Shown: positions 14,265 to 62,494, counted from the first letter of the stretch. The stretch is DNA of 64,000 nucleotides from a virus (IMGVR_UViG_3300005613_000006:96001-160000); one strand, 5' to 3'. The notes: generated from the letters alone by a model not told the origin. Made by a program: numbers and translations.

Positions 14265-14346
14265 TAGCCGCCGCGAGAGTCGAACTCGCACGCCTCGAAG
14301 GCACCACTTTTTGAGAGTGGCGTGTATACCATTTCACCAGACGGCC
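14265..14346 (-). tRNA. tRNA-Leu(CAA)
   Basis: Cloverleaf, long variable arm. Confidence 0.9.
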
Positions 14347-14405
14347 ATGTTTGGTGTATAATAAAGGTAGACAAGTTCATTGAACCACACCAAGGAGTCT
14401 ACCCC

Positions 14406-14918
14406 ATGTCTCGCAAACGAAATTGGACTGACCAACAACTACGCCAAGCGGTTGGTGTATCACATTCTGTTGCACAAGTTCTATCTGCTTTGGGCTTACA
14501 AGCCAACGGCGGAAACTACAAGTCGTTCTATCATCATTGTAATAGACTGGGCCTTGACTATAATCACTTTACAGGACAAGGACATTTGAAGGGCCGAACT
14601 CACCATTGGAAACCTCGCATTCCGTTACAGGAGGTTATGGTTGCCGACTCTTCATATCGCAATTTAACCAGTCTCAAAAAACGAATAGTTGAAAGCGGTT
14701 TGATAGATTACGTGTGTTCTGAATGTGGACAGGAACCGATATGGAATAACAAGCCTCTGGTGTTAATACTAGACCACATCAATGGCATCAACAACGACCA
14801 TCGACTTGAAAACCTGCGATTTCTATGTCCAAATTGTAATGCTCAACAACCAACTTTTGCTGGTCGCAACAAAGGCAAAGCATCCCCACGGGGAATCGAA
14901 CCCCGGTCACTAGTCTGA
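14406..14918 (+). CDS. HNH endonuclease
   Basis: LDHINGINNDHRLENLRFLCPNC; GGTGTATAAT upstream. Confidence 0.9.
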   Translation: MSRKRNWTDQQLRQAVGVSHSVAQVLSALGLQANGGNYKSFYHHCNRLGLDYNHFTGQGHLKGRTHHWKPRIPLQEVMVADSSYRNLTSLKKRIVESGLIDYVCSECGQEPIWNNKPLVLILDHINGINNDHRLENLRFLCPNCNAQQPTFAGRNKGKASPRGIEPRSLV

Positions 14919-14952
14919 GAAACTAGTATCCTAGCCGCTAGAAGATGGGGAC
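14881..14952 (-). tRNA. tRNA-Glu(CTC)
   Basis: Cloverleaf. Confidence 0.9.
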
Positions 14953-15085
14953 GTAAAAAAAGCGGCAGTATGCTTCAACCATGTGGGAAGCGCGCGAACT
15001 AACCAACTGCCGCTTTACGGTGCTTTTCGGTTCACTCGCCTAAACGAGCCGGAAAAGCCACTGTCAAAACTGGTTAGTCCCAGAG

Positions 15086-15155
15086 TAGCGATGGAGGAAA
15101 TCGAATCCTCTTGGTGTCCGTATGAAAGACACTGAGTTACCAAACACACATCGCT
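15086..15155 (-). tRNA. tRNA-Met/Ile2(CAT), atypical D arm
   Basis: TGTCT-TTCATAC-GGACA anticodon arm; T arm present. Confidence 0.7.
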
Positions 15156-15156
15156 A

Positions 15157-15231
15157 TGGTCGCGCGACAGGTTTCGACGCTGTATCGCCGGTCTAATCAG
15201 GACCAGAGTGTTGCCATTACACCACGCGCGC
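15157..15231 (-). tRNA. atypical tRNA (GAT loop, 6-bp anticodon stem, encoded CCA)
   Basis: GCGCGCG acceptor, D arm, degenerate T arm. Confidence 0.5.
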
Positions 15232-15457
15232 TTTTACAACACCGTCTTTAATCAGACGTTGCATATGAACGCTATTGCCTTTTGGGTAATCACAAGCAAT
15301 ACAACGATACCTCATGCCTCCACGTAGGGCTGGATGAAAATATCGGCATTGTGGTGGATGGCCACAAGGTAATAGTTTATCGTTCATAGAGTCCTCCATA
15401 CGGAATCGAACTGTTTATACCTTTTTGGTGTATAATAAAATACGGCTCGATTCAAAG

Positions 15458-15525
15458 AGCCTCACCGGGGAATCGAACCCCGTTATCTCGGGTACAAACC
15501 GAAACTTAGACCCATCTAGCAAGGC
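15458..15525 (-). tRNA. tRNA-Thr(TGT)
   Basis: Cloverleaf, short D arm. Confidence 0.8.
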
Positions 15526-15531
15526 AAAGTT

Positions 15532-17861: not shown

Positions 17862-18377
17862 TTATACACCAACATCCACTTCTCGTAGCTCTTTCAGGGC
17901 TTTATTTATGATATATTGGATGCCCGGTGCGGTATAGCCGTACATGTCAGCTATTTCCTGCAAAGTGTGGTTGGATATGTAGCGGTCTCGCAGTATTTGG
18001 CGAGGCATTTCATCCAGGTATTCCAGCAGTTCTTCCACCAATATGGCATTCTGAACCGCAGAATCGTCAGCGGGTATGTCGCCACGTAAAGGCCCTGCTT
18101 GAATACGGTCGCCGTACTTAGCTCGCGCGGCGTTGTTGCATTCCCATTTGACAAATTTGAACAGAGAGGTAGTGAATTTTCGTTTGAAGCTGGGATTATG
18201 TGATTGAAGGGCTCGCCATAAGGCGTCTAGCCCGCATTGCTTGAGTTCATCGGAGGATAGGCTTGCCATATAATTGGTACATGCCGCGTGAATAATCTTC
18301 TGGTTATCTATGTTGTCTAGCGCTTCTTGAAACTCCTCATCTGTTATATGTCTCTTTCTACTCTTCCTCTTCTTCAT
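17862..18377 (-). CDS. sigma-70-like RNA polymerase sigma factor
   Basis: Region 2-like (LWRAL...KFTTSL) and region 4 HTH (TLQEIADMYG). Confidence 0.8.
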   Translation of the reverse strand: MKKRKSRKRHITDEEFQEALDNIDNQKIIHAACTNYMASLSSDELKQCGLDALWRALQSHNPSFKRKFTTSLFKFVKWECNNAARAKYGDRIQAGPLRGDIPADDSAVQNAILVEELLEYLDEMPRQILRDRYISNHTLQEIADMYGYTAPGIQYIINKALKELREVDVGV

Positions 18378-19059
18378 AGTCTACCTTTAACATCTTGATA
18401 GTCTCGAACCCCTCATCGCCAAGCACGGCGTCCATGAGGCCCCATTCGACCGCCTCCCGCGCGGTCAAGTACACGTCGTCTTTGTATGCAATCTGCTTCT
18501 CAATCTCAGCCCGTATTTTCTCCTCAGTCCAGTTTTGAAACTTCTTGCCAGCCTTACACTTCTCCACGTATATGTCTATCATACGTGGATTCGCTACGTT
18601 CTTGTAGAAGTCCACCCCACTGAACACAGTCTTGACATTACCACTATCTCCATACTCACCATCGTGCATCATAAAATAGGAAGTGGGCATAATAACCCGG
18701 TACTTCGCCGCTTGGGGAATGATGCTCGACATAGAGCGGGCGTGGGCGTAAGACAAGGTGGACACGTTGGCCAGCTTCGGGTCGGCATTGCTATGCTCGA
18801 TGGCGTCGTAGATGCCCATTGCATAGTCCCAAGAGCCACCACAAGTGATAAGGTGGACTAGGATGGGTTCTTTGCTGATGCTGTTGAGTATTTGTAGGTT
18901 GATAAGAAACTGTCGCGTGGTGTCCCAGTCAATCATCAGCGTTTCTTCGCTAGGCGAAATGAAGATTTCTCTCGTATCCAATATGAAGCCAAAGTTGTGG
19001 GCATCATAAATCATTTCAGAGCGTTGACTTATTGTGCGACGTTTTACAGTAGCGGGCAT
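18358..19059 (-). CDS. clpP: ClpP-family protease
   Basis: TCGGS, ARSMSS, FMMHDG, YLTAREAVEWGLMD. Confidence 0.88.
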   Translation of the reverse strand: MPATVKRRTISQRSEMIYDAHNFGFILDTREIFISPSEETLMIDWDTTRQFLINLQILNSISKEPILVHLITCGGSWDYAMGIYDAIEHSNADPKLANVSTLSYAHARSMSSIIPQAAKYRVIMPTSYFMMHDGEYGDSGNVKTVFSGVDFYKNVANPRMIDIYVEKCKAGKKFQNWTEEKIRAEIEKQIAYKDDVYLTAREAVEWGLMDAVLGDEGFETIKMLKVDYEEEEE

Positions 19060-22083: not shown

Positions 22084-22189
22084 AGCAATCTCCCAATCAA
22101 TGTGTCTCCAAAAATAACAAACCACTGATTCGTCCAGGCTGGCTCAGTGGGAAGCCTTTATGGGAGCTATCGCCGCTGGCGTAGCTCAG

Positions 22190-22261
22190 TAGCCCATCAG
22201 GGTTCCGCCCCCCGTCTAACGGTTCCGAAGACCGTTGTGCTGTCTATCACACTCATGGGCC
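22190..22261 (-). tRNA. tRNA-Arg(TCG), non-canonical T loop
   Basis: Cloverleaf; T loop GGCGGAA. Confidence 0.75.
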
Positions 22262-22461
22262 TTAATGCAACAGGTCAATCTTACCCTTGCCTAACACTTG
22301 TTTCAGGCTGGCAGTTTTACCTGGACGATAGAGCGCAGCCGGTTTGTTGTTGTCCAAATGTTCTCCTAAGCGTGGGGTGGGAACGGCAGTCTCGCACTGC
22401 TATCTGTGGCGTTTTCGTTTTCTCGAACCGCTCTCGCTACGCGGAACCTCACCCACCCAAG

Positions 22462-22533
22462 CAGGCCATCGAGGTTACGCTCCCCGTCTAAACGCTTAGA
22501 AGGCGCTTGTGCTGTCTATCACACTCATGGCCC
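22462..22533 (-). tRNA. tRNA-Arg(TCT), non-canonical T loop
   Basis: Cloverleaf; T loop AGCGTAA. Confidence 0.75.
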
Positions 22534-22606
22534 GAATTACTCGAACCTGGGAAAAATGGTGTATAATATACTGAGGTTCCATTCTTTCAACAGTAGGAGA
22601 TTACCG

Positions 22607-23056
22607 ATGAAATGCCTAAATTGCCTCAAGGAAACACCAAATCCCAAGTTTTGTTCTCGTAGTTGCGCCGCTACCTACAACAATCGTAAACACCCAAAGC
22701 GCAAACCCGAGCATAAATGTACTATTTGTGGCGAACGCATAACCGCTGGTCGCTCACGATGCTCCCAACATCGTATTGGTCGTGACATGACCCTAGCGGA
22801 AGCAATCTACACCCAACATCATCGCAGCAGTGCCTTTGCGTTGGTACGTTCCAGAGCTAGAAAAGTTGCCCTGCAACTCGGTCGTACTACCTGTCAACAC
22901 TGCGGTTACAATTTACATGTTGAAGTTTGTCATCGTAAACCTATTGCAGACTTTCCAGAGGACACATTATTGAGTGTTGTCAATCATCCTGACAATCTAA
23001 TAGTTCTGTGTCCAAATCACCATTGGGAGTTTGACAACGGTTTATTACAACTGTAG
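22607..23056 (+). CDS. HNH endonuclease
   Basis: KFCSRSC, EVCHRKPI, NLIVLCPNHH. Confidence 0.88.
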   Translation: MKCLNCLKETPNPKFCSRSCAATYNNRKHPKRKPEHKCTICGERITAGRSRCSQHRIGRDMTLAEAIYTQHHRSSAFALVRSRARKVALQLGRTTCQHCGYNLHVEVCHRKPIADFPEDTLLSVVNHPDNLIVLCPNHHWEFDNGLLQL

Positions 23057-23127
23057 TAGCCCTTGGGGGAATCGAACCCAACCCATCCAGGTTTCGTAGA
23101 CCCGGTGCTAAATCCATTAGAAAGGCT
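23057..23127 (-). tRNA. tRNA-Arg(ACG)
   Basis: Cloverleaf. Confidence 0.8.
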
Positions 23128-23157
23128 ATAGTAAATCAGAATGTTTTCGTAGAAAAT

Positions 23158-23267
23158 GGCGACTAGGTTCGGAAAGACGGCGTATGTTGCACCAGCATTC
23201 TAGGCGGGGAATTGAACCCCGAACAATTCTTTTATAGAGAACATGTAGTCTTATCCAGGCATTCGCC
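23158..23267 (-). ncRNA. Y RNA-like (Yrl) RNA 1
   Basis: GGCGAATG...GACTACATG / GTCTT...TAGTCGCC stem with internal T arm. Confidence 0.7.
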
Positions 23268-23269
23268 AG

Positions 23270-23342
23270 TGGTACATCGAGGAGTCGAACCTACGCACAA
23301 CTGCCTTATCAGGGCGGTTCGCACAACCGGCGCGCATGTACC
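23270..23342 (-). tRNA. tRNA-Ile(GAT)
   Basis: Cloverleaf. Confidence 0.8.
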
Positions 23343-23379
23343 ATAGTACGCACAACAGGTTGCACGTACTGTATAATAA

Positions 23380-24010
23380 ATAGTGCCTATCACAAGTTCT
23401 CGGCAAAATCCGCGAGTGACTGGAGGTTTAGTATAGCGACAGTATTTCATGTACTCCATCTGTGAACACGGTAGTGAACCGCTTCACCCGCTTTGTCCCT
23501 GTTGTTGGGCGCTACCCCTCGCAACAGCACGACACTAGAGTGACACCTGTTCTGGGGTTCTCTCAGTGTAGTTGCAAGCTACCCTTGAGTCACTCCACAC
23601 AATCCTGCCACCCTCGGGCGGTAGCCGGTCTGTGTCCCTTTCGGGTTGGCGGTCTCGCCTTTCGGCTTGACCCGTAGACACTTCCAGTTGTCACACCCGC
23701 ATTTTAGGGGTTACCCCCATTTCCCGAGACTTGTTTATCTATTGCATAAATAGTCTGTAATCCGGTACTTCTGATAAATACGGAAAATCCACTATTCCTT
23801 CCAGTAGTATTCCATGAAAGGCCATGACTCTTACGTTCCGGCTACTCGGGCATTTCGTGGCACCCATACCACTTATCACCCACGCTACACGTTCCGTTGC
23901 CTGGGGTGTAACCCAGCCGTCAGAAACACGCTCTCGCATATTGGTCGGCAAGCCGACCGCCGTTCGCCCCGGTTAGGCAGAACAGTTTGAAAACCCTGCG
24001 ACAAAGGGTT
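23380..24010 (-). ncRNA. large structured ncRNA candidate (GOLLD/ROOL-like)
   Basis: About 630 nt between tRNAs, no credible ORF, several GC stems with GAAA tetraloops. Confidence 0.5.
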
Positions 24011-24013
24011 TAG

Positions 24014-24084
24014 AGACAGCAGGGGGAATCGAACCCTCAAGTTACGGTGTTGCAGACCGCACGCCCGCCATGAGCATCACTGTC
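24014..24084 (-). tRNA. tRNA-Cys(GCA)
   Basis: Cloverleaf. Confidence 0.8.
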
Positions 24085-24113
24085 TTATTCTTTCAGGCAG
24101 CTTTGCTGCCCAG

Positions 24114-24184
24114 TACGGGTACTCGGAATTGCACCGAGACCAACAGCTTGGAAGGCTGTCGTGCTGCTATTACACCACACCCGC
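24114..24184 (-). tRNA. tRNA-Gly(TCC)
   Basis: Cloverleaf. Confidence 0.88.
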
Positions 24185-24289
24185 ATATTGCCTACTTTCC
24201 AAGACCTAACACTGGATAAGGGTATTTCACCTTACCCAGGGTTTGCCCGAACATGCGTCGCTTATGTACCTTAGCGTAGAAAGTAAGAG

Positions 24290-24361
24290 TGGCTCCCTTC
24301 GGACTTGAACCGAAACCTAACGCCTTAAGAGGGCGCAATGCTACATTGACACCAGAGAGCC
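24290..24361 (-). tRNA. tRNA-Lys(CTT)
   Basis: Cloverleaf. Confidence 0.88.
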
Positions 24362-24808
24362 TTTGATTTTACATAAATGTTTTTTGTATACCTTTACCAA
24401 TCCAGCGTGGACTTTACGATGACAGTTAGCACAAATAACTGCGCACTTTCTGATTTCATCAAACACCTTGGGGCTTTTGTTGCGTGTCATTCGAGACACG
24501 CTTTGTTCCTTTTTGGTACTGTCTAGGTGATGAAAGTCTAAACATACAGGCTCGTTCTCACCACATAAACAACAAGTATTATCTTGTTTGATGTCGTTGA
24601 TTCGCTGCACAAACTTTTGCCGTTGTTTAGCAGCCCGAAGCGATGCTCTCTTGTCTTGTTTTTCCAAACGCTGATAAGAAGCGATAGCACCTTGCTTGGC
24701 ACAAATTTTACAGTACGAATGTCGGCCATCTTTGGTCGAGGCATTTTTATAGAATTCCGTTAAGGGCTTGGTTGCCCCACATTTGCGGCATTGTTTTGAT
24801 GTTGTCAT
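24341..24808 (-). CDS. small HNH endonuclease
   Basis: CLDFHHLD...KCAVICANCHRKVH. Confidence 0.88.
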   Translation of the reverse strand: MTTSKQCRKCGATKPLTEFYKNASTKDGRHSYCKICAKQGAIASYQRLEKQDKRASLRAAKQRQKFVQRINDIKQDNTCCLCGENEPVCLDFHHLDSTKKEQSVSRMTRNKSPKVFDEIRKCAVICANCHRKVHAGLVKVYKKHLCKIKGSLVSM

Positions 24809-24873
24809 AGTAGAATCTTCTTTCTACTATAATTATACACCAAAAATGTTAAAAGCCTCAACAAAATTCTAAG

Positions 24874-24946
24874 TGGACCCACTCGGAGTCGAACCGAGAT
24901 ACCTTGATTAAAAGTCAAGAATGTTAACCATTGACATTATAGGTCC
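24874..24946 (-). tRNA. tRNA-Lys(TTT)
   Basis: Cloverleaf. Confidence 0.9.
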
Positions 24947-24947
24947 G

Positions 24948-25020
24948 AGGCGGGTACAGGAGTCGAGCCTGTGGCTCAGGGTTATGAACCCTGCATGTTT
25001 ACTACCTACACTAACCCGCT
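24948..25020 (-). tRNA. tRNA-fMet(CAT)
   Basis: GGG/CCC anticodon stem, 1:72 mismatch. Confidence 0.8.
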
Positions 25021-25025
25021 TCAAG

Positions 25026-25098
25026 TAGGTCGTCAGGGAGTCGAACCCCGCCCTTGAAACCTTATAAGAGTTTCTGGCACCACCGATGCCCACGACCC
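25026..25098 (-). tRNA. tRNA-Ile(TAT)
   Basis: AAACT-CTTATAA-GGTTT arm. Confidence 0.8.
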
Positions 25099-25360
25099 AT
25101 ACGCACACGCTAAACTCTACGTCCCAATGGATTACGAACGCAAAACCGTGTGCGTCGATGGCATTCGCCATCCAAAGAGTCCTGACTGGTTCGCCTTCTG
25201 TGTTTATCCCTTGCAGCAACCCATAGGTGTCGCTTCAACTGCAAGGCCCAGTATCTCTCACCGTACATCTCAGGGCTGTTGCCAACCACGTTCGTCAGCT
25301 TACACCCAGGCTTTCGAGGCCCCCATCGGAAGACTACGGACTGCCGTTTTCTGGACTCAG

Positions 25361-25428
25361 TGGAGCGACGGGGACTCGAACCCCGCCTCCGACCGTGCAA
25401 AGGTCAGGTCTAGCCCTCTAGCCACCCC
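25361..25428 (-). tRNA. tRNA-Ala(TGC), reduced D arm
   Basis: G3:U70 pair, T arm. Confidence 0.8.
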
Positions 25429-25473
25429 TTTTTGCTCGTCGTACAAGGTATTATACACCGGGAATTCGGTTTG

Positions 25474-26103
25474 TCAACCAACTTTTTGAAGATTTTCATG
25501 GACAAACCAAGCATCCCAGCCAACTTCCCTCATCCAGGTGTATCCCTTATCCCTCAGAAAAGTGGTAATATCCTCCAAATACTTGCGGTCTCGCCCCTCA
25601 TGGCAGTTGTGTTCCACGGTGATAATTCCAAACACCCAGGTCCAGTCGTAGGATTTCAGAATGTCTAGCTCCGAGCCCTCTGTGTCGATGGACAGGTAGT
25701 TAACGTAGGAAGGAGCGCCGTGTTCGGCCAGGAGGTCATGTAACGTGACGCACGGAATCTCCACTTCCCTCCCAAACTGCTGTCTTTCTTTCTGATACGG
25801 CTGGTCGAGGTCAACAAACTCTGAAATGGTGGAGCAAACACCACCAGAAAAATCAACCTCGGTGAACTTCACGGTTCCGTTGTGGGTCCACACAGCCCGC
25901 TTGTCCCTCTTGCATGTACGCCCGAACTTGTCGTATTGTTCGTCGTTTATCAACGGGTCCACGCAAATTCCTTGCCACCCCGCCTCGTCTAACAAAAACG
26001 AGTTGCTGAAATGCTCCGCATGGCTTGCGCCGACCTCCACATAGAAGCCCTCGTTCCCTACTTTCTCCAACACGAACTTGTCCTGTCCTAACTGACTAGG
26101 CAT
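25474..26103 (-). CDS. FkbM-family methyltransferase
   Basis: SQLGQD, VEVGA, LSIDTEGSE. Confidence 0.88.
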   Translation of the reverse strand: MPSQLGQDKFVLEKVGNEGFYVEVGASHAEHFSNSFLLDEAGWQGICVDPLINDEQYDKFGRTCKRDKRAVWTHNGTVKFTEVDFSGGVCSTISEFVDLDQPYQKERQQFGREVEIPCVTLHDLLAEHGAPSYVNYLSIDTEGSELDILKSYDWTWVFGIITVEHNCHEGRDRKYLEDITTFLRDKGYTWMREVGWDAWFVHENLQKVG

Positions 26104-26719
26104 AACCCTTCTCCTTTAACCAAGGTCCAAAGGTGTCTTCAATCTGTTCTATCAACTTAGGGCTTAGAACTTCCTTGTAGTACCCAGGCACTCGCTTGGT
26201 GAAGTGTTGATGATGCAGCAAGTTCGTACTGTCATAGGTCGCGCTTGAATACTTGGAATGTTCCATGTCTTGCACAGCCCTCGCTATTGCCTGCGGTTCA
26301 CACCACAAGCCCATAACTTCGGCAATACTTTCAATCAACGAAACAGGCTCTCCTATCAGAAGTCGATACTCAAACTCGAACGTAGACAGGGGCCTGTAGT
26401 ATTCGTATCCCTCAACAGCGCTGTGTAATGCCCCTATTACATTGCTGGCGTTTACCCACTTCTTGAGCATGAGCGAGGCCGCAACGTCCCTCAAGTCGCG
26501 ATAGCAAGTAAAAATGACCGAACCCTCTACCAACTTAGGGGTCTTGTCATGCACCTTGATTACAGCCGCCTCAAAGTTTGCGCGCCAATCTGCCTGGAAA
26601 CTGGTGACGTATCCAACATGCACTGGGTCATAATGCTGCTCTGTCAACAGCCTCACGACGTTGTACAACCAAGTGCTGCCGCTTCGCGACATGCCAGCAC
26701 ATAGATACATTGGTTTCAT
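26096..26719 (-). CDS. sulfotransferase-like protein
   Basis: GMSRSGSTW (PAPS loop), RDLRDVAAS. Confidence 0.8.
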   Translation of the reverse strand: MKPMYLCAGMSRSGSTWLYNVVRLLTEQHYDPVHVGYVTSFQADWRANFEAAVIKVHDKTPKLVEGSVIFTCYRDLRDVAASLMLKKWVNASNVIGALHSAVEGYEYYRPLSTFEFEYRLLIGEPVSLIESIAEVMGLWCEPQAIARAVQDMEHSKYSSATYDSTNLLHHQHFTKRVPGYYKEVLSPKLIEQIEDTFGPWLKEKGYA

Positions 26720-26722
26720 AAG

Positions 26723-26795
26723 TACCCCGAGCAGGACTCGAACCTGCGGTCTTCGGATTAGGAATCCGCTGCGTTATCCTCTACGCCACCGGGGC
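26723..26795 (-). tRNA. tRNA-Arg(CCT)
   Basis: Cloverleaf. Confidence 0.92.
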
Positions 26796-27033
26796 GTTGG
26801 TTTTTCAGAAGTTCTTTCATCTGTCTGTCTGCTTCCAGAGACATAACAAGGTCTACCGCGCTCTGGTAGATTTCATCTCCATACGTCTTACGAAGTATGT
26901 CATGCAAAATTCCACCGGCCTTGCCGAGAAATTCGGCATGAGTCCACATACTGGTCCCGCCGTTGTTGTCGATAACATGCGTCTTAGTTACCGTCAGCGT
27001 TCCGTGTTTCGTGTGCCAAATCTGTGGTTTCAT
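26758..27033 (-). CDS. hypothetical protein
   Basis: ORF overlapping tRNA 5' end. Confidence 0.5.
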   Translation of the reverse strand: MKPQIWHTKHGTLTVTKTHVIDNNGGTSMWTHAEFLGKAGGILHDILRKTYGDEIYQSAVDLVMSLEADRQMKELLKNQRPGGVEDNAADS

Positions 27034-27868
27034 TTTGCAACATCCTGAGAATGTGGTTATACGTTGCTTCTAGTGTGAAGTATTCCGGCCACACTTCTCT
27101 CACCCTCTCTTGCTTGCGAGCAATGTCGGCGCTGGTATGACTCCTCAATATGTCAGGCAGCCTGTCAATATCATCTATGTGACATTGAACACTGAACTCG
27201 CACCAATTCAAAACGTCAGCGTAAGGAAGCCATAACACATCGTAGATGTAAACTGGTATAGCTCCGTAGGCCAGTGCCTCGCATATACGAAATGAAGTTC
27301 TTCCATATCCGCGTGGGCACAGCGCGAAAATACACTTGCCCATTCTGTGCAAGGGGTCATGCTTAGTATCTTTGATGGAGAAATCTGAGAGCCCCTTCAA
27401 CGCCTCGTTCATGCGCCCCCGAACACCAGTCCGGTTGTTAGGAGGGTTTTTGATATGTCCAGCAAAGTAAGCAAATACATCTCGGTCTCCTTTAACCGGG
27501 ACGGTAACGATGTTGTACGTCAGAGGAATCGGTATATCCCCTTTGCCACCAGCTCCAAAAACCAACAAGTTTTCTGGGGGCTCCTCATACAAACCATCAT
27601 CGGCTTGTACTATAGTGAACGATGGTTCTGTGACCTGTTCGTTCATAAACTTTTGAAGTTCTCGACTGTACTCCTTGTTGGACCCAGGCCCAATGCCATA
27701 CTTGCAGTACACATGTGTCCAAAAGATTGGTAAGTAGTGACGCCGAATGTTGTCGGGCGGATTGTTCAGCCATCGCTCGTAGAAATAGTCTTCTATCTTT
27801 GGACCCACCTTTGGGTATCCTCGACACATACGAGACAATTCACGAAATCTGCCCAATGTATCAATCAT
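26984..27868 (-). CDS. exostosin-like (GT47) glycosyltransferase
   Basis: FALCPRGYGRTSFRICEALAYGAIPV. Confidence 0.88.
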   Translation of the reverse strand: MIDTLGRFRELSRMCRGYPKVGPKIEDYFYERWLNNPPDNIRRHYLPIFWTHVYCKYGIGPGSNKEYSRELQKFMNEQVTEPSFTIVQADDGLYEEPPENLLVFGAGGKGDIPIPLTYNIVTVPVKGDRDVFAYFAGHIKNPPNNRTGVRGRMNEALKGLSDFSIKDTKHDPLHRMGKCIFALCPRGYGRTSFRICEALAYGAIPVYIYDVLWLPYADVLNWCEFSVQCHIDDIDRLPDILRSHTSADIARKQERVREVWPEYFTLEATYNHILRMLQNETTDLAHETRNADGN

Positions 27869-27870
27869 AG

Positions 27871-28193
27871 TAATCTCCTATAGCCGGGATTCTGTGGTAG
27901 CTACGCTACCGCTCAACATTTATCTTAGCACCTACCCGAGCATCATCGGCCTGTTCATCGCCTAGCTCTGTTTGGCTTGCACCCTCGGTAGTGCAGTCGG
28001 ATGCTGGATGGCGTAACAAGAACATTTCTTTAGCAGCTTCTTCGTCGTACCCCCCTCCGAAACAATCGTCAAAAGAGTCTTCCAACATGTCAGCAAGTTT
28101 ACATCTTGATAATGCCATCAGCATCCTCCTACCTTAAACAGTGGTGTCCTGAGCTTCCTGTAGGGCTACGCCCCACCGTTGAGCCAGAGATTA
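27871..28193 (-). ncRNA. rnpB: minimal RNase P RNA
   Basis: P1 TAATCTCT/GGAGATTA, P2 GCTCAAC/GTTGAGC, P3, CR-I AGGAAGCTCAGGAC, P5/P6/P7, P15 GGGTAGGTGCT, CR-IV AGATAAATG, CR-V ACAGAATCCCGGCTA. Confidence 0.85.
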
Positions 28194-28711: not shown

Positions 28712-28713
28712 AG

Positions 28714-28797
<84 letters not shown>

Positions 28798-28799
28798 AT

Positions 28800-29607: not shown

Positions 29608-29611
29608 TCAG

Positions 29612-29686
29612 TGGGCCATACTGGATTTGAACCAGCGACTTCCGCGATGTCAACGCGACACTCTAACCGGACTGAGTTAACGGCCC
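29612..29686 (-). tRNA. tRNA-Val(GAC)
   Basis: Cloverleaf. Confidence 0.93.
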
Positions 29687-48405: not shown

Positions 48406-49007
48406 TGATTTTGTTTCGACCAATATCCGCGCGGTGGCTTGTTTATACCATACGTCTTACACCACTTTTCAATCGCCTTATCACTCACACCCAAGTTTTT
48501 AGCTAGTTGAGATGTGGGTCTTTGCCACACTAATTTTTCCAGTTCTTGTTTAGTTGGTCTATCAACTTTTCTGGTGTTTGGTCTTGGTTTAGAAGAAATC
48601 CTTTTGCCAAGTTCTTGTGGAGTCTTTTTGGTTGCGTAGTCAGTAAAATTTAGAAAATCTTCATACCACCAAAAGGAACATGCGTTATCAGGAATTGTTG
48701 TTTGTAGTGTTATTCCGCCCAGAAGTATTGACGGATATGCTACTTTGTCTACTGTTGGTAAATATACAGCATAATAATCAAAATCATTACTATTGTATGT
48801 ATATTTGCCTTTGCGGGTCATAGAATAATTTCTCACAATGCCATTGCTAGCGTATTTTACCTGTAATCTCCACACTGTTTCTTGTAAGCATAATAAGTCT
48901 GCCTTGGGGTGGTCGTTAATTGGCAAGTATACTTCATAATGTTTGCCAATCAAGTCAGCAATCACTTTTGCTAATGCAATGTCGCCCTTGGTATTTGTGT
49001 CGTTCAT
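48402..49007 (-). CDS. PD-(D/E)XK endonuclease with C-terminal HTH
   Basis: KGDIA, ADL...RLQVKY; PPRGYW. Confidence 0.82.
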   Translation of the reverse strand: MNDTNTKGDIALAKVIADLIGKHYEVYLPINDHPKADLLCLQETVWRLQVKYASNGIVRNYSMTRKGKYTYNSNDFDYYAVYLPTVDKVAYPSILLGGITLQTTIPDNACSFWWYEDFLNFTDYATKKTPQELGKRISSKPRPNTRKVDRPTKQELEKLVWQRPTSQLAKNLGVSDKAIEKWCKTYGINKPPRGYWSKQNQ

Positions 49008-49053
49008 TTGAACCTACCTTTCTGTATACATTATACACCAAAGTAAGTTCGAG

Positions 49054-49125
49054 AGCGCCTAGAGGAAATCGAATCCTTCTCTTCAACCATGGCAAGGTTG
49101 CGTGCGACCATCACACTGTAGGCGC
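49054..49125 (-). tRNA. tRNA-Gly(GCC)
   Basis: Cloverleaf. Confidence 0.85.
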
Positions 49126-49126
49126 T

Positions 49127-49279
49127 TATAGTCCAAGGAATGATAGCAGTCCAAAGATTTTCAACAATACTATCAGGCTAAATAATGCACCTAAGCCAGA
49201 AGTAATCGTCCGTATCAATTCCATAAAATGATTGTGCTTATCTAACCATAGTTCTGTTCGGCTTCGTCTTCGTTGCATG
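49127..49279 (-). CDS. small membrane protein (50 aa)
   Basis: MQRRRSRTELWLDKHNHFMELIRT followed by TM segment; GGAG SD. Confidence 0.55.
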
Positions 49280-49295
49280 ATAGACTACTCCGAAG

Positions 49296-49386
49296 CGGAA
49301 GAGGGGGGAATCGAACCCAAACCGTCCCGATTTTACGGGAACTGCATTAGCGGTGCAGCAGGGCTACCAACAGCCGTGACTCTTCC
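49296..49386 (-). tRNA. tRNA-Ser(GCT), C33
   Basis: Long V arm. Confidence 0.8.
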
Positions 49387-49408
49387 GAATCAAATGTATG
49401 AAGTTTAG

Positions 49409-49480
49409 TGGGCGAACAGGGAATCGAACCCCGGTTTGTTGGGTGTAAACCAACTGCACTGGCCATTGTACTACACGCCC
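49409..49480 (-). tRNA. tRNA-Val(TAC)
   Basis: Cloverleaf. Confidence 0.92.
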
Positions 49481-49481
49481 G

Positions 49482-49586
49482 TGGTGAGACCCGACCGGGA
49501 GTTGAACCCGGCTCTAGCCACCATGTTGTAATAGACGGACTCGAACCGCCTGCTAGGGGGAGCTACCCCATCTCCAAGCAAGTCTC
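49482..49586 (-). ncRNA. tRNA-like RNA with two T arms and encoded CCA
   Basis: GAGACTT/GGGTCTC-A-CCA; GGCGG-TTCGAGT-CCGTC and CCGGG-TTCAACT-CCCGG. Confidence 0.6.
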
Positions 49587-49589
49587 AAG

Positions 49590-49690
49590 TGGGGAGCGGG
49601 GGAATCGAACCGCCACGGCGTCCTCCATGTTTGTATTATGCCAACAAGGGTACTATGGCGCGCTTGCCTTGTCACATGGAACACACCCCA
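49590..49690 (-). ncRNA. tRNA-like RNA without a canonical anticodon arm
   Basis: TGGGGTG acceptor, T loop, TCCATGT/ACATGGA inner stem. Confidence 0.5.
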
Positions 49691-49698
49691 TTCTCAAG

Positions 49699-49787
49699 TG
49701 GGAGATAAGGGAATTGAACCCCCTGGCCGACCACCTAGCATCTTATAAGGCCATCTGATTTACAGTCAGACGCTAGGAATACCTCCC
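49699..49787 (-). tRNA. tRNA-Tyr(GTA) lacking a D arm
   Basis: TCTGA-CTGTAAA-TCAGA; CCTAGC complementary to GCTAGG in the variable loop. Confidence 0.75.
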
Positions 49788-50173
49788 GTTTTATATTGTT
49801 GATACTTCTTGCCTAGATTGATGCGATTTACACATTTTACAATACTTGTCGGTATTGAATATGAATCACCATTATCACATAAAACAAAAAGTAGGTCAAC
49901 TTGTTTTGGGTTGAACTTCTTGACTACTCCACCCCAACTTTGATTGCCTCCGCAGACCCTCAAGCCCGCTGAGTATACTCCGTATGGAGTTTGTGATGCC
50001 GTAGACTTGACTTGCACCTTGTTAAGTTTCTTACCGTCGTCAACAATCAAGTCATAGTCTTGGCTATCAGTGAGAGGAATACACACTGTATAACCTTGTT
50101 GGGTGTAGTATGCAATCGCAGCACCTAACCCAACGTCACCTTGCTGCTTACTGTTTTTGGTATTCTCAAACAT
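49766..50173 (-). CDS. PD-(D/E)XK homing endonuclease
   Basis: QGDVG, YDLIVD...KVQVKS; paralog of 42425. Confidence 0.85.
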   Translation of the reverse strand: MFENTKNSKQQGDVGLGAAIAYYTQQGYTVCIPLTDSQDYDLIVDDGKKLNKVQVKSTASQTPYGVYSAGLRVCGGNQSWGGVVKKFNPKQVDLLFVLCDNGDSYSIPTSIVKCVNRINLGKKYQQYKTGGIPSV

Positions 50174-50230
50174 AGTAGTTTCCTCCTACTATATTATACA
50201 CCAAACAGCGGAGTAATACACTCTTCTAGG

Positions 50231-50300
50231 TGGACACGTCGGGACTCGAACCCGTCATTCTCGGTGCAAACGAGACATGCTCCCATTACATCAACGGCCC
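50231..50300 (-). tRNA. tRNA-Ala(TGC), bulged acceptor stem
   Basis: Cloverleaf. Confidence 0.75.
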
Positions 50301-50440
50301 ATCGTAGCCCGTAACGTGGGCTAATCGGGGGACGACTCAAGAGCCGCCTTCACCACCAACTTTTGACAGAAGTTGGAAACTGGGAGGGTAGCCGAAGCCA
50401 CTCCCACCGCCACCAGTTCTTTATGGAAACTGGAAACCAG

Positions 50441-50513
50441 CGACCCTAGCGGGAATTGAACCCGCGTCGAGAGGTTGAAAGCCTCACATCCTAGTCCACT
50501 AGAAGATAGGGCC
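50441..50513 (-). tRNA. tRNA-Glu(TTC)
   Basis: Cloverleaf. Confidence 0.92.
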
Positions 50514-50579
50514 ATGTTTTGGATGGTAGCCCTTTCAATGCTACTTTTAGGGTACGGCCTCACGGCAGGCACATCCAAG

Positions 50580-50652
50580 CACCGGGTAGAGGACTCGAAC
50601 CTCAAACTAGCGGTTTAACAGACAGCCGTGCTACCTATTACACCAGCCCGGT
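50580..50652 (-). tRNA. tRNA-Asn(GTT)
   Basis: Cloverleaf. Confidence 0.85.
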
Positions 50653-51063
50653 ATGTTTTTTCACTCTGTCAATCAATTTCTGAGGGACTTCCACTATACC
50701 CTCTTCAACTTCCGCATGGTAGTTGCTACAGACTAAGATGCACTTCCTAGCTTCTGCTAATGCTCTGTCCCAACCTCGGGTCTGCCCTCCCATTGACAAT
50801 CCAAACTCTTTTGTCTCTGGAAAAACGTGATGAAACCCCAACGCCCGCTCACATTTATCATAGCCACATAGTTCGCATTGTCCCCCAAAGTGTTTAACCA
50901 GCTTCGGCTTGAGATTCTTGCGATACCGAGCAACCTTTTCCACCCGACACTTCTTGCAACGAAAGGTGCTTCCCTCTGCCACATGCTCAGTCAGGCCGTG
51001 CTTCTTACATTGGAAAAAAGGCGACAAGTTAGTTGGCCGACATTTCTTGATATTTGGAATCAT
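50638..51063 (-). CDS. small HNH endonuclease (C-to-Y change in CxNC motif)
   Basis: ALGFHHV...KCILVCSNYH. Confidence 0.8.
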   Translation of the reverse strand: MIPNIKKCRPTNLSPFFQCKKHGLTEHVAEGSTFRCKKCRVEKVARYRKNLKPKLVKHFGGQCELCGYDKCERALGFHHVFPETKEFGLSMGGQTRGWDRALAEARKCILVCSNYHAEVEEGIVEVPQKLIDRVKKHTGLV

Positions 51064-51085
51064 GTAGTCGTGCCTTGCATTCGCC
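51020..51085 (-). ncRNA. minimal Y RNA-like RNA 4
   Basis: GGCGAATG...CGACTACATG / GTCG...TTGTCGCC followed by U-tract; starts 5 nt after TATAAT. Confidence 0.65.
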
Positions 51086-51090
51086 GTTAT

Positions 51091-54655: not shown

Positions 54656-54900
54656 AGTCTCTCTCTTTGAGGTAGGAGTCAGTGGACGGCGCGGGAATTG
54701 AACCCGCGTCCTGCGATACCTCCAAAGCAAACGTCTACGTGTGTAGTTTGTTGTTAGGCTGCACAACAAACAAAGCTGTCTCGATGGTGGATATGCCTCT
54801 TGTTTTTTTAGGCACAAGAATAAGCCGTCCCGCGCTTGCCGTTAGGCTGCGCAGGCCAGAATGCCGTTATACTCGGCAGTTAAATTTGGTAGTCGATTTT

Positions 54901-55395
54901 TTATACACGATTCGCTTTTAAGTATTGGATTGCATTTTGTAGCAGGGCAATATCGTCCTGTAAAAAACCAATCCCGCGATTGCATTTGTTACACAACAGA
55001 CCTCGTATTTGTCCAGTCTGGTGGCAATGGTCTATTGCTAGTTTGCAATCTTTACCATGTCCAACTTCAACTCCACAGATTTGACATTGTTCACCGAATT
55101 TTGAAACAAGTTCTTCATATTGCGCAAGCGACTGAGCATCTAAGTGTATGCAATGATTACATTGATACTTGCCGTTGCTCAATAATTGTGGAAAGTTTGA
55201 CAATGGTAATAGTTTGCCACAGTTTTTACATGTGGCCTTGCCGTTTTTTGTATTCTTGGTTTTCGGTTTGTGCAAACCAAGATTAACGGCTTTGTAACGC
55301 AAGGTGGTATAGTTCATGCCAAGCTGACGAGCAGCTTTTCTTAAAGACATTCCACTTTTCACCAAGTTTACAATCTGTTGTTCAACTTCGGTCAT
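54901..55395 (-). CDS. endonuclease VII-type HNH with N-terminal HTH
   Basis: LAIDHCHQTGQIRGLLCNKCNRGIG; own promoter and SD. Confidence 0.92.
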   Translation of the reverse strand: MTEVEQQIVNLVKSGMSLRKAARQLGMNYTTLRYKAVNLGLHKPKTKNTKNGKATCKNCGKLLPLSNFPQLLSNGKYQCNHCIHLDAQSLAQYEELVSKFGEQCQICGVEVGHGKDCKLAIDHCHQTGQIRGLLCNKCNRGIGFLQDDIALLQNAIQYLKANRV

Positions 55396-55466
55396 TGGTG
55401 TTTCCTCCCTATTATTATACACCAGAACTGACCAAAATCGACCAATGCTTAAAAGCGAATCGTGTA
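54904..55466 (-). mobile_element. intervening sequence bounded by a 25-bp inverted repeat
   Basis: TACACGATTCGCTTTTAAGCATTGG (55466-55442) vs CCAATACTTAAAAGCGAATCGTGTA (54928-54904), 24/25 paired. Confidence 0.85.
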
Positions 55467-55537
55467 ACCGTGGCCCTTCGACCAACCACGACACGCGGTT
55501 CACAGCATCAGCACCCAGTCGAAACCTAAATGCCGCC

Positions 55538-55870
55538 CTAAACACTGTCTAACAAAGCAGCGACTTCCTCAACTGTCGCCTCGGCTCCTGTATGTAAGAT
55601 TGCGTCAACAACCTTGCCTCCATGTAGTCTAAACTCACGGAAGCCCATTTCTCGCCTAACACGACGAGCTAACGCCCGCTTCTCCAACCATGTTGGATTT
55701 TGTGCCATGAAAGATACCTCTTCTGAGGACTTACGGCAGCGGTCGCGAATCAGTGGAATCAAACCAATAGCAACTTCGGTAAGCAATAGCAAGAGCGCGG
55801 CGCTCAGTGCCACATTTTGCTCACCCGGTAGATTCAGAACTGTTCTCTCAGCAAAGTCTTCTGGTGTCAT
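55538..55870 (-). CDS. hypothetical membrane protein
   Basis: TM segment. Confidence 0.6.
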   Translation of the reverse strand: MTPEDFAERTVLNLPGEQNVALSAALLLLLTEVAIGLIPLIRDRCRKSSEEVSFMAQNPTWLEKRALARRVRREMGFREFRLHGGKVVDAILHTGAEATVEEVAALLDSV

Positions 55871-55897
55871 TGCTCTCTCTCTTTCTTTTCTAAACAG

Positions 55898-55971
55898 TCG
55901 GAATGACAGGATTTGAACCTGCGGCCTTCCGCCCCCCAGACGGACGCGCTACCAAGCTGCGCTACATTCCG
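55898..55971 (-). tRNA. tRNA-Pro(GGG)
   Basis: Cloverleaf. Confidence 0.93.
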
Positions 55972-60022: not shown

Positions 60023-60035
60023 GACTTCCTCTCAT

Positions 60036-60076
60036 AAAAAAGACCCTACGGCATCAACCACAGACACCGTAGGGCC
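60036..60076 (-). terminator. intrinsic terminator
   Basis: CCCTACGG/CCGTAGGG hairpin followed by T-run. Confidence 0.65.
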
Positions 60077-60173
60077 GTTCTCCGAACCTCATCACGGGAG
60101 ATTACCATGCGCAACCACGGTGTTCACCTATGCTTCAAAAAAACGATGTTTCTCAAAATCCAACTGACCACTT

Positions 60174-60506
60174 TTAGTTGTCGGCTTCATGGTGTAGTTT
60201 GGCGTGGCAGTTTAAGCAGTACACGTCACACTTCGCTATCTCAGCAAGGATACGTTCGATGCTGAAACACCTATTTACCATTACTGCGATTCCCATTTCC
60301 TTTTGAGCCGGGTCTCGATGGTGAAAGCACAAGCACGCTGGATGGTTTTCGCCACATTCCTTACATTGCTTGTCTTTCTTGTATTCTCTCAACCACGCCC
60401 ACTTCTTTTTCCTCAGTTTGGCTTTATTGGTGGCGTAGTTGGTCTTGTTGGCCTCATAGTGCTTCTTGCTTAATTCTCGGCGCTTCTCAGGGTCTTTGTA
60501 TGGCAT
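60174..60506 (-). CDS. small HNH endonuclease
   Basis: CLCFHHRD...KCDVYCLNCH. Confidence 0.88.
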   Translation of the reverse strand: MPYKDPEKRRELSKKHYEANKTNYATNKAKLRKKKWAWLREYKKDKQCKECGENHPACLCFHHRDPAQKEMGIAVMVNRCFSIERILAEIAKCDVYCLNCHAKLHHEADN

Positions 60507-60589
60507 CGGAGCCTCCTGATTTGGGGTACACTACATTATACACCAAATCAGACTGCAAAGAAGTCTTGAACCCCTAAGTTTCTAAAAAG

Positions 60590-60664
60590 GCCCGCCGAAA
60601 GGGTGTCGAACCCCTCACCACGACTCGCGCGTTGTGGTGGTGTGTCCACGCTACACTCGACGGT
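60590..60664 (-). ncRNA. tRNA-like RNA
   Basis: CCGTCGA/TCGGCGG acceptor, T arm, 15-nt central loop. Confidence 0.45.
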
Positions 60665-60766
60665 TGTGACACTAGGGAAGACGTGCGCCCGCCTCCCCTA
60701 GTGTTTGATTCACTGCGCTTGTCCAGCTATTCCAAAAAAAGCGATTCAATTACGCAAAGCATTAAA

Positions 60767-60866
60767 GACGACAAAACGATGCTGGGAAGTGTGCTTAAAC
60801 CTCCTTCGGTTTTGCTGGATTCGCGACTCTTTTCGTCATTTGCATGTAATCCCAACTACATTCGCC
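60767..60866 (-). ncRNA. Y RNA-like RNA 5, immediately downstream of Ro60
   Basis: GGCGAATG...GGGATTACATG / TTCCC...TTGTCGTC. Confidence 0.72.
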
Positions 60867-60922
60867 TGCCCGCTACCCTGGTCGGCTTGAATCTACCGGC
60901 CAGGGCGACAATATGCGGGCGA

Positions 60923-62494
60923 TTAGTCTCCTGAGTAGTTTTCCACGATGGAAACAAAGTCTTCGCCGCTTTCACGGTTGAAGAAGTCGTCCATCACGGT
61001 GAATACGGCATCGCTGAAACCACCCACGTTCAACACAACGCCTTCGCGTTCTGGTGTCTGCGTGGTAGTGTTTGGCGTAATGTCGATGTTCACCAACTTA
61101 CTCTTTGGGTTTCTACTGTGGAACTCAGTCCACTCTTGGGCCGTACCGCCTCGACCACCATGACGACCAAACCAACTTTCGTTGTCCGATACGTAGATGA
61201 TGTTCTCAGCCTTGGCTCTTGTGTTGTTCAAGTGTCGTAGTGGAACCGAGCAGTCGGTTCCCCCACCACCAAAGCTGCGCAAGGTCTGCGCATTGGTCAT
61301 AACACTGTCAAACGGGTTCAAGTGTGCATTGTACAAACGGTTGTCGAATGGCATGATGCTGGCGTTCTTGTTTTGACGGAGTACGCACACTGCGAACAGG
61401 GCGGCTACGTCAACACACTTGGTAACGCTGTACGAACCAGTACGACGGCCCATTGCAACCCAACTCATTGAGCTTGACACGTCCACACCAACCACAGTGC
61501 GGCCTCGGAAGGTCGGCACGTTTTCCGTAGCAATTTCCATAGCTTCCTGCAAGGCGTTACTGATACGGCTGTCGATGGTCACGTTTTGGTACGTGGTCAA
61601 CAGTTGGTATGGGAAGACGTTGCACTGGCGAACCAATTCTGGATTGGCCAACTTCGCGGCCACTTCGTCCACAAATGCGCTGCTACCGAACACACCACGC
61701 TTTTCGAGCATGTTCAAGTTCATACGCAAAGTGTTCCAGGGCATGTTGCGAGCAATGTCACGCCATGCGTTGACACCCAACTTCAAGTTCGTCAAAGCGC
61801 GAAATGGAACGTCTGGGATTTCGTACTCATCTGGCACGTCACCCATTTCCTTCAACGCTTCAAACTGTTGAATGTCTTCTGGTAGGTACTGGTAGTTTTC
61901 GTCGCTCAACTTACCAATCAAGTACGAGAACATAGCTTGCTGTTCTCTACCCACTGGACGTGGGTGTACCATCTTGATAGCATCGGCAAGCGACGGGTTG
62001 CTGTGACCTACGCTGGCGATGTACAGCTTGTACGCACTGCGGTCTTGCAGCCATCGCTGGATGCAACGCTTTACGGCAGTACCAAAGCTACGTCGGCCAA
62101 CGGCACCACTACGAATCAAGTGCATGAAGTTCAACAGCATCTTGCTGTTGTTACACACACGATTGAAGATGGTCTTGACCAACTCGGTTTCGCCTCTGGC
62201 GGCTAGAGTAGCCAACAGGTAAGCAGGAACGTCCTTCATTCGACCAACCTCACGGCTGTAGACCGCTAGCTTGGCCAAAAACTCTGACGAACATTCGTTT
62301 GCCAGCGCTTGGATTTCCTTGACTTGTTCACCGGCGCTGACATAGAAGGTGTTGCTGAACGTACCAGTTACGGCGTACTGTGCCAGGGCATGTTCGTTGG
62401 TCTTGCTGTACGCAAGGCCACCAGCGTGATTTCGCGTGTCTGGACGAGGCGTGTTACGCGAACGACAACGGTTTCTGAAAAGATTCTTGTTCAT
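60923..62494 (-). CDS. rsr: Ro60/Rsr TROVE-domain RNA-binding protein
   Basis: NHAGGLAY, TROVE core, vWA DVSSSM...GGGTD...SDNESW. Confidence 0.93.
   Translation of the reverse strand: MNKNLFRNRCRSRNTPRPDTRNHAGGLAYSKTNEHALAQYAVTGTFSNTFYVSAGEQVKEIQALANECSSEFLAKLAVYSREVGRMKDVPAYLLATLAARGETELVKTIFNRVCNNSKMLLNFMHLIRSGAVGRRSFGTAVKRCIQRWLQDRSAYKLYIASVGHSNPSLADAIKMVHPRPVGREQQAMFSYLIGKLSDENYQYLPEDIQQFEALKEMGDVPDEYEIPDVPFRALTNLKLGVNAWRDIARNMPWNTLRMNLNMLEKRGVFGSSAFVDEVAAKLANPELVRQCNVFPYQLLTTYQNVTIDSRISNALQEAMEIATENVPTFRGRTVVGVDVSSSMSWVAMGRRTGSYSVTKCVDVAALFAVCVLRQNKNASIMPFDNRLYNAHLNPFDSVMTNAQTLRSFGGGGTDCSVPLRHLNNTRAKAENIIYVSDNESWFGRHGGRGGTAQEWTEFHSRNPKSKLVNIDITPNTTTQTPEREGVVLNVGGFSDAVFTVMDDFFNRESGEDFVSIVENYSGD

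Follow-up and report, generated by a model that had tools for sequence, protein, structure and literature searches.

Large actinophages (for example Myrna and Bxz1 of mycobacteriophage cluster C, and JustBecause and Kela of Streptomyces) and Myxococcus phage Mx1 possess transfer RNA (tRNA) islands in which dozens of tRNA genes, a transfer-messenger RNA (tmRNA), Ro60/TROVE with Y RNAs and HNH endonucleases occur in one region. Here we describe an island of this kind that also contains an RNase P RNA-type gene, located at positions 14265-62494 of a 64,000-nucleotide (nt) stretch of viral DNA (the window). The window comprises bases 96001-160000 of IMG/VR record IMGVR_UViG_3300005613_000006, a virus of 172,878 bp rated 100% complete by CheckV, and coordinates are counted within it unless given as genome positions. 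Almost all window genes lie on the minus strand; the RNA genes of the island (tRNAs, tmRNA, RNase P-type RNA and Ro60/Y RNAs) share one strand and are interspersed with homing endonucleases and sugar-modifying enzymes. The source is probably a lytic-type, deep-branching phage of 173 kb with a translation-support RNA island, and the island probably supplies RNA components in bulk while leaning on host proteins, which would leave the phage short of autonomy. No close cultured relative was found, the closest DNA polymerase among GenBank phages being at most 33% identical; megablast of 20 kb returned a tRNA-Pro match only, and exact-peptide scans with ribonucleotide reductase and DNA polymerase found no close relatives.

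Mx1 resembles the window island in its ARAGORN gene content (37 tRNAs and a tmRNA) and also carries Ro60, but no RNase P-type RNA was found in it. Mx1 was rejected as a relative, with only about 12 open reading frames (ORFs) shared with the window phage and neither the RNase P nor the Y-RNA motif found. The tmRNA of Mx1 (OR576727.2) encodes the tag VNTNVFGSQMMAAA and scores 118 bits in Rfam; the genome announcement, by comparison, lists 22 tRNA genes and no tmRNA gene. The window phage is unlike both the actinophage and the Mx1 islands in that its tmRNA gene is interrupted and its tRNAs carry an N73-CU trailer.

RNase P RNA is generally viewed as a housekeeping ribozyme universal to cells, and no account of a viral copy turned up in the literature consulted. 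Minimal RNase P RNAs (Pyrobaculum type T and the isolated bacterial catalytic domain) keep the catalytic domain and have a lost or reduced specificity domain; they belong to cellular genomes with their own protein subunits, whereas the window copy is phage-borne and sits between protein genes in a tRNA island. An earlier interpretation made from the DNA alone (the sequence-only reading) had proposed an RNase P RNA here, and a full-length, though non-canonical, RNaseP_arch match was identified. The catalytic domain is complete, with P1-P4, the bulged U, conserved regions CR-I, CR-IV and CR-V, and L15 CGGGUAGG, and the Rfam alignment places AGGAA..UC and ACAGAA..CCGGCUAUA. P1 forms 8/8 pairs, P3 is a 5-bp hairpin, P4 reads AAGCUCAGG and CR-IV reads AGAUAAAUG. 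P2 (GCUCAAC/GUUGAGC, 7/7) differs from the family sequence GACAAUC/GAUUGUC at four pairs, with both sides changed, and CUGUUU/GAACAG is a possible P6 pairing. The L15 sequence GGGUAGG sits at the homologous place, where its GGU would be the element for pairing with the tRNA 3' end. Compared with Escherichia coli M1 RNA (RF00010), the window RNA shares the P1-P4 topology, the P4 bulged U, CR-I/IV/V, L15 GGGUAGG and possibly P6; it differs in having neither CR-II/III, P8-P14 (replaced by a rod) nor P16/17, and in the lack of a phage RnpA gene.

The strongest evidence on this RNA came from a syntenic 1.2-kb metagenome contig (L218), retrieved through a protein match to an ORF embedded in the RNA and then a metagenome DNA pattern, which carries the same genes up- and downstream of the RNA. 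About 190 nt of RNA core are nearly identical between the two, compared with 84% DNA identity for the upstream gene and about 55-60% identity for the downstream protein. The core changes keep or improve pairing (P7 GGUAG/CUACC to GGUGG/CCACC; a P4 A.C mismatch to A-U; wobbles in P5 and P1), and the loop of P3 is new. The specificity-domain slot (about 27993-28130 in the window) holds unrelated sequences of about 135 nt in the two RNAs; the window insert resembles the sequence of no family member, and both inserts fold as closed rods more stable than shuffles (z = -3.4 in the window, z = -5.7 in L218). Because the core is nearly identical in L218 and its changes preserve pairing, the comparison indicates that the RNase P-type RNA is under structural selection.

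The embedded ORF suggests another reading, in which 27870-28194 is mainly a small protein gene (70 amino acids; 75 in L218) whose mRNA derives from an old RNase P RNA. In both the window and L218, P7 is followed by a strong Shine-Dalgarno sequence and an ATG with an open frame; the window ORF starts in the rod, and its overall codon score was higher than that of any of 3000 stop-free shuffles. However, this signal comes mostly from 22 codons that coincide with the conserved RNA core. The insert part alone gave P = 0.01 in the window and P = 0.69 in L218, the N-terminal parts are unrelated, the C-terminal frame is shifted by a 28-nt RNA indel, PHROGs yielded no protein family for the ORF, and both inserts form the stable rods described above. 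Translation of the ORF is doubtful because the codon signal resides mainly in the conserved RNA core, and we regard a primary role as a protein gene as very unlikely.

Related RNAs were sought by scanning IMG/VR for ACAGAANNCCGGCTATA, which gave 40 loci. At 16 of these (13 distinct sequences), GAGGAAGTTCGGG was present 165-325 nt upstream, together with CGGGTWG and AGAYGAATG. Five of the 13 RNAs exceed the RF00010 gathering score (162-255 bits), one is carried by a complete phage genome of 299,875 bp with terminal repeats, and all 13 lie within tRNA arrays. The number of other viral contigs with an RNase P RNA is thus at least 13. In an RNAalifold analysis of 12 sequences, P1 showed strong covariation, and P4 formed between columns 60-69 and 468-475 with U63 left as a bulge. 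The phage members range from full type A to cut-down forms. The window RNA shares CR-I, CGGGUAGG, CR-IV and CR-V with the 13 RNAs, and on sequence grounds it belongs to a distinct phage group having GAGGAAGUUCGGG and CCGGCUAUAG instead of the bacterial consensus. A scan with the window-specific CR-I word gave 120 chance matches and no relative.

Other parts of the island were less constant in these records. A permuted tmRNA (L021 and L026) or GOLLD RNA lies near some of the viral-contig RNase P RNAs; the GOLLD RNA (L040:7888-8305, 201 bits) shares its tRNA array with an RNase P-type RNA. A CCA-adding enzyme was found in two RNase P-bearing records, one of which also carries Ro60, and no RnpA was detected in any of 15 phage records examined. 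In a complete 208-kb phage, Ro60 is accompanied by two Y RNAs that have the stem of the window Y RNAs and by 38 tRNAs with an encoded CCA, and neither RNase P RNA nor tmRNA was found there. The firm association is therefore that of RNase P RNA with tRNA arrays, and the other parts are modular, because Ro60/Y RNA, tmRNA and the CCA-adding enzyme are distributed independently among tRNA-array phages. The sequence-only reading had named independent distribution among relatives as one result that would speak against it; this is partly what we found, namely for these three elements. Some matches were discarded during these searches. A blastn match in a 735-kb uncultured phage was not RNase P RNA. 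A second blastn match, obtained with a type A phage RNase P RNA as query, was in "Microcystis phage MaAM05" (MW495066.1, 112416-118478) and was not counted as a phage example because the RNase P-like stretch is surrounded by the bacterial-looking genes fabI, engB and mtgA; it may be host DNA in the assembly. RF00023 matches across 18 records were mainly tRNA cross-matches and were unusable for tmRNA co-occurrence.

For the tRNA genes, ARAGORN identified 37 at default settings, all on the minus strand; 25 of these also scored above the Rfam tRNA gathering score. Relaxed settings (-ps90) added five genes (Arg UCG, UCU and ACG; Trp; Ser GCU) and one odd tRNA-like gene. A long-arm (class II) gene at 49700-49787, with a CUGUAAA anticodon loop and a 7-bp acceptor stem, was read by eye as tRNA-Tyr(GUA), a probable assignment. 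The resulting total, 44 tRNA or tRNA-like genes, serves 19 amino acids (no Gln gene lies in the window) and agrees with the earlier count of about 44. Four further genes outside the window (two Gln at genome 3910-4115, a second Trp and a third Glu) complete the set for all 20 amino acids. Three Leu-anticodon tRNAs at 46082-46627 (CAA, UAA, UAG; 74-76 nt) have a short variable arm, a class I architecture unlike that of normal bacterial tRNA-Leu, and coexist with long-arm Leu genes (CAA, GAG, CAG). Extra T-arm and acceptor-like 3' halves ending in CCCCA-CUU or similar, with no ARAGORN call, lie at 49481-49700 and 46655-46690 on the minus strand and may be tRNA fragments or tRNA-like modules.

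The sequence-only reading had most tRNAs without an encoded CCA, and none of the 37 default-set tRNAs encodes one. Instead, C-T directly follows the discriminator in 36/41 tRNAs of the genome and in 36/42 of the relaxed window set, and several of the exceptions resemble one-base boundary shifts; overall, about 36-40 of the 42 window genes carry this trailer. The tmRNA 3' end matches this trailer, with A73 followed by CUG and not CCA. CCA is mostly encoded in the tRNAs of other RNase P-bearing phage arrays, and CT follows the discriminator in 14/37 tRNAs of Mx1. Pairing of the trailer C74-U75 with the two G residues in L15 of the RNase P RNA (G-C, G.U) would be possible. These features allow for a semi-private tRNA maturation channel, in which a ribozyme without the T-loop-reading domain recognizes its substrates mainly by pairing of L15 GGU with a genome-wide encoded pseudo-CCA; we consider this improbable. 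If it held, A73-C74-U75 would give U-A, G-C and G.U pairs with L15 GGU, tRNAs, tmRNA and tRNA-linked Y RNAs would be cut from long mixed transcripts, cutting would be independent of how the host enzyme handles CCA-less precursors, and the specificity-domain slot would be a swappable rod or a cassette site.

The tmRNA with an AA C-terminal degron proposed earlier was located, and its gene is interrupted. The 5' piece (55467-55538) contains the acceptor strand with G3:U70 and the 5' strands of pseudoknot 1 (pk1), and the 3' piece (54690-54903) contains the pk1 3' strand, resume codon, tag, stop, T arm, acceptor strand, A73 and CUG. The two pieces provide the acceptor stem GGGCGGC/GCCGUCC, the T arm GCGGGUUCAAUUCCCGC, the resume sequence UUUAACU-GCC and the tag AEYNGILACAA followed by a stop, with all helices and the tag frame intact. 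Between them lies the 563-nt insert with its endonuclease ORF; no intron family was matched in it. ARAGORN found no tmRNA in the native sequence 54690-55538 and a normal 294-nt tmRNA after in-silico removal of the insert. This gene organization is neither the contiguous one-piece form nor the known permuted two-piece form. The RNA may be spliced, function as two pieces, tolerate the insert or be dead. An ARAGORN tmRNA call at 25360-25772 was false and fell within an FkbM methyltransferase ORF.

The Ro60/Y RNA module of the earlier interpretation was recovered as a Ro60/Rsr orthologue and five Y-RNA-like genes. Ro60 passed both Pfam models, TROVE and vWA_Ro60, with scores of 31.4 bits (cut-off 23) and 76.2 bits (cut-off 27.7), and scored 94 bits for NCBIfam Rsr, under the equivalog cut-off. 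A tblastn search with this protein matched 387 phage records, the best being the Mx1 protein (44% identity). The Y motif (GG[CU]GAAUG, 4-14 nt, RAYUAC) occurs five times in the genome compared with about 0.1 expected; all five genes are on the window minus strand and have a complementary 3' strand, with one compensatory variant. Their stems match the Ro-binding motif GNCGAAN0-1G (Chen et al. 2014; PMC4201824). As in YrlA-type bacterial and phage Y RNAs (PMC4201824), this stem is joined in some of them to a tRNA-like or T-arm-like module, and one of them lies beside the Ro60 gene. They differ in being five dispersed copies with differing middles, two of which directly follow tRNA genes (within 2-8 nt) and one of which has its own promoter, and in that just one copy, Y RNA 3, resembles the Rfam model, under its gathering score (RF02553; 26.8 bits, E = 1e-4 for the genome; threshold 69). 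A full tRNA-like module is present in Y RNA 3 only, with T-arm-like hairpins in two others and none in the short form.

We also searched the complete genome with Pfam for proteins that would act with these RNAs. No RnpA, RNase Z-type enzyme, CCA-adding enzyme, SmpB, RtcB or RNA ligase was detectable; CCA-adding enzyme, RtcB, SmpB and RnpA were among those that the sequence-only reading had put forward for a genome search. Every element that this reading had listed is present. Its suggestion of unusual independence from host RNA processing is not borne out; with no partner proteins and all tRNAs CCA-less, the phage RNAs must work with host proteins. On our preferred reading of bulk RNA supply, the tRNAs would be transcribed as polycistronic precursors from several sigma-70-like promoters and their 5' ends cut by RNase P. 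The phage RNA would assemble with host RnpA, giving more RNase P capacity or an altered specificity, and its L15 GGU could pair with the near-universal N73-C74-U75 trailer. Trimming of the 3' ends and the addition of CCA would fall to host enzymes. Provided that it survives the insert, the tmRNA would use host SmpB, AlaRS and EF-Tu and tag stalled products with a Clp-type ...CAA end, and Ro60 with its Y RNAs would act with a host exonuclease on RNA that is misfolded or in surplus.

The sequence-only reading also raised a counter-defense role, in which the tRNAs would stand in for those that the host loses to anticodon nucleases, and translation would be sustained by the RNase P RNA and tmRNA if the host's RNA components came under attack or its transcription were turned off. 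The genome-wide tRNA set is complete for 20 amino acids, and the absence of detectable RtcB and RNA ligase fits a strategy of supply, not repair. Phage tRNAs are reported to be able to evade tRNA-targeting defenses (PMC10264068), which also counts for this role. Such a role is tentative and rather less probable than not, and it is compatible with bulk supply and not an alternative to it.

A number of observations weigh against the island as a working supply of translation RNAs. The RNase P-type RNA scores below the gathering score of every Rfam RNase P model, and the bacterial type A model RF00010 gave no match to it at all. Its P4 contains the A.C mismatch, the specificity domain (CR-II/III, P8-P14) is absent, a 70-codon frame is open within it, the P1 strands coincide in part with the upstream gene's stop codon and the downstream gene's Shine-Dalgarno sequence, and no strong promoter was found directly upstream. 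The tmRNA may be dead, because 563 nt without a recognizable intron interrupt the gene. Ro60, tmRNA and RNase P RNA showed no consistent co-occurrence in other phages, so that functional integration beyond a shared tRNA biology is something we infer. Two further parts of the proposed kit are also affected. A ClpP-superfamily protease is present as claimed, but whether it is a Clp subunit or a head-maturation protease is ambiguous (NCBIfam ClpP 46.5 bits, head-maturation protease 43.3 bits, both far below cut-off). GroES is a real gene but lies about 11 kb outside the island range to which it had been assigned.

A rival reading is an accessory-gene junkyard, an endonuclease-seeded hot spot that accumulates tRNAs and captured host RNA genes. 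The tRNAs would work, but the elements would be functionally unlinked, and the RNase P-type RNA and the tmRNA would be relics in decay. Both RNA genes are non-canonical (the tmRNA by its insert, the RNase P RNA by its missing specificity domain), at least seven homing-type endonuclease genes were identified in the island (Pfam, PHROGs), partner proteins are not encoded, and Ro60, tmRNA and RNase P RNA are independent in Mx1, G017 and the RNase P-bearing contigs. In contrast to the expectation for a relic, however, the RNase P core is far better conserved than its flanking genes in comparison with L218 and every change keeps or improves pairing; in addition, the tmRNA helices and tag frame are all intact, and RNase P-type RNAs lie inside tRNA arrays in 13/13 viral contigs examined. 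We therefore consider a junkyard unlikely and retain bulk RNA supply as the probable reading.

The island also carries many glycosyl-, methyl- and sulfotransferases, two sigma factors, SSB, dUTPase and thioredoxin. Sugar- and sulfate-transfer genes are densely packed at 25474-38438 on the minus strand, with single tRNA genes between them (FkbM methyltransferase, sulfotransferase, Exostosin GT47, GT4, Fringe-like, nucleotide-diphospho-sugar transferase and GT11/NodZ-like). A wcaG RNA motif (RF01761; 47 bits, gathering score 42) lies at 50342-50441 on the minus strand between tRNA-Ala and tRNA-Glu. Outside the island, a DNA polymerase III alpha-like gene (genome 80493-85908) is split into two ORFs of 655 and 573 amino acids with a 355-amino-acid ORF between them, and may represent another mobile insertion.

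Table 1. Features of the window and the evidence for each (SD, Shine-Dalgarno sequence; aa, amino acids).
Feature	Position	Strand	Evidence or detail
RNase P RNA-type gene	27870-28194	-	Rfam RNaseP_arch (RF00373) full length, 28.6 bits (threshold 84), E 2e-4 window-wide
70-codon ORF inside RNase P RNA	27909-28118	-	AGGAGG-6 nt-ATG
tmRNA gene	54690-55538	-	Sequence; Rfam RF00023 36.3 bits (below gathering score 47), E 9e-13 locally
563-nt insert in tmRNA pk1 loop	54904-55466	-	Sequence
Endonuclease VII/HNH ORF in insert	54901-55394	-	Pfam Endonuclease_7, 68 bits; own extended -10 and SD
tRNA cluster A: Leu(CAA), Glu(CUC), Met(CAU), Thr(UGU)	14264-15525	-	ARAGORN; Rfam tRNA for two
tRNA cluster B, 11 genes: Arg(UCG), Arg(UCU), Arg(ACG), Ile(GAU), Cys, Gly(UCC), Lys(CUU), Lys(UUU), Met, Ile(UAU), Ala(UGC)	22189-25428	-	ARAGORN default; three Arg only at -ps90
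Six scattered single tRNA genes	26722-39158	-	Amid glycosyl-, methyl- and sulfotransferase genes (Pfam on neighbors)
Single Arg(CCU)	26722-26795	-	
Single Leu(GAG)	28713-28797	-	
Single Val(GAC)	29611-29686	-	
Single Ser(GGA)	34385-34466	-	
Single Gly(CCC)	36299-36370	-	
Single Ala(CGC)	39089-39158	-	
tRNA cluster C, 14 genes: Leu(CAG), Thr(GGU), Ala(GGC), Thr(CGU), Phe, Ser(UGA), Ser(CGA), His, Trp(CCA), Asp, short-arm Leu(CAA/UAA/UAG), Pro(UGG)	40301-46763	-	ARAGORN; Trp(CCA) only at -ps90
tRNA cluster D, 7 genes: Gly(GCC), Ser(GCU) 49295-49386, Val(UAC), probable Tyr(GUA) 49700-49787, Ala(UGC), Glu(UUC), Asn	49053-50652	-	ARAGORN; weak tRNA-Sec-type Rfam matches on two long-arm genes
tRNA-Pro(GGG)	55897-55971	-	ARAGORN, Rfam; 88.8% identical to tRNA-Pro of Streptomyces phages JustBecause and Kela
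Odd tRNA-like gene, four-base anticodon call	60589-60663	-	ARAGORN -ps90 only, weak; downstream of Y RNA 4
Ro60/Rsr orthologue, 531 aa	60923-62518	-	Pfam TROVE and vWA_Ro60
Y RNA 1	23152-23270	-	T-arm-like module; abuts 3' trailer of tRNA-Ile(GAU)
Y RNA 2	41128-41241	-	Stem GGGUGA/UCACCC (compensatory), T-arm-like module; 8 nt after tRNA-Ala(GGC)
Y RNA 3	44052-44190	-	YrlA-like, tRNA-like module (T arm and D arm); Rfam YrlA full length
Y RNA 4	60762-60869	-	GGCGAAUG...GGAUUAC, 3' partner UCGUC; stem starts 54 nt after Ro60 stop
Y RNA 5	51012-51088	-	Short form; own TTGACA/TATAAT promoter; U-tract after 3' strand
ClpP-superfamily serine protease	18358-19059	-	Pfam CLP_protease 58 bits
GroES (Cpn10)	2484-2765 (or 2469-2786)	-	Pfam Cpn10 64 bits, NCBIfam GroES 64 bits
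HNH endonuclease in tRNA cluster B	24341-24808	-	PHROGs, Pfam
Further HNH endonucleases	45561-45959 and about 50638-51063		PHROGs, Pfam
PD-(D/E)XK endonucleases	48402-49007 and 49766-50173		PHROGs, Pfam

The phage RNase P RNAs, which run from full type A to cut-down forms, offer a natural test of how much of the ribozyme is needed. No member examined has an RnpA gene, and one may ask whether phage RNA and host protein assemble into hybrid holoenzymes; the N73-CU trailer is a possible probe of tRNA 3'-end recognition. For annotation, the island advises caution, in that "translation-related" phage kits can raise, not lower, dependence on host proteins.

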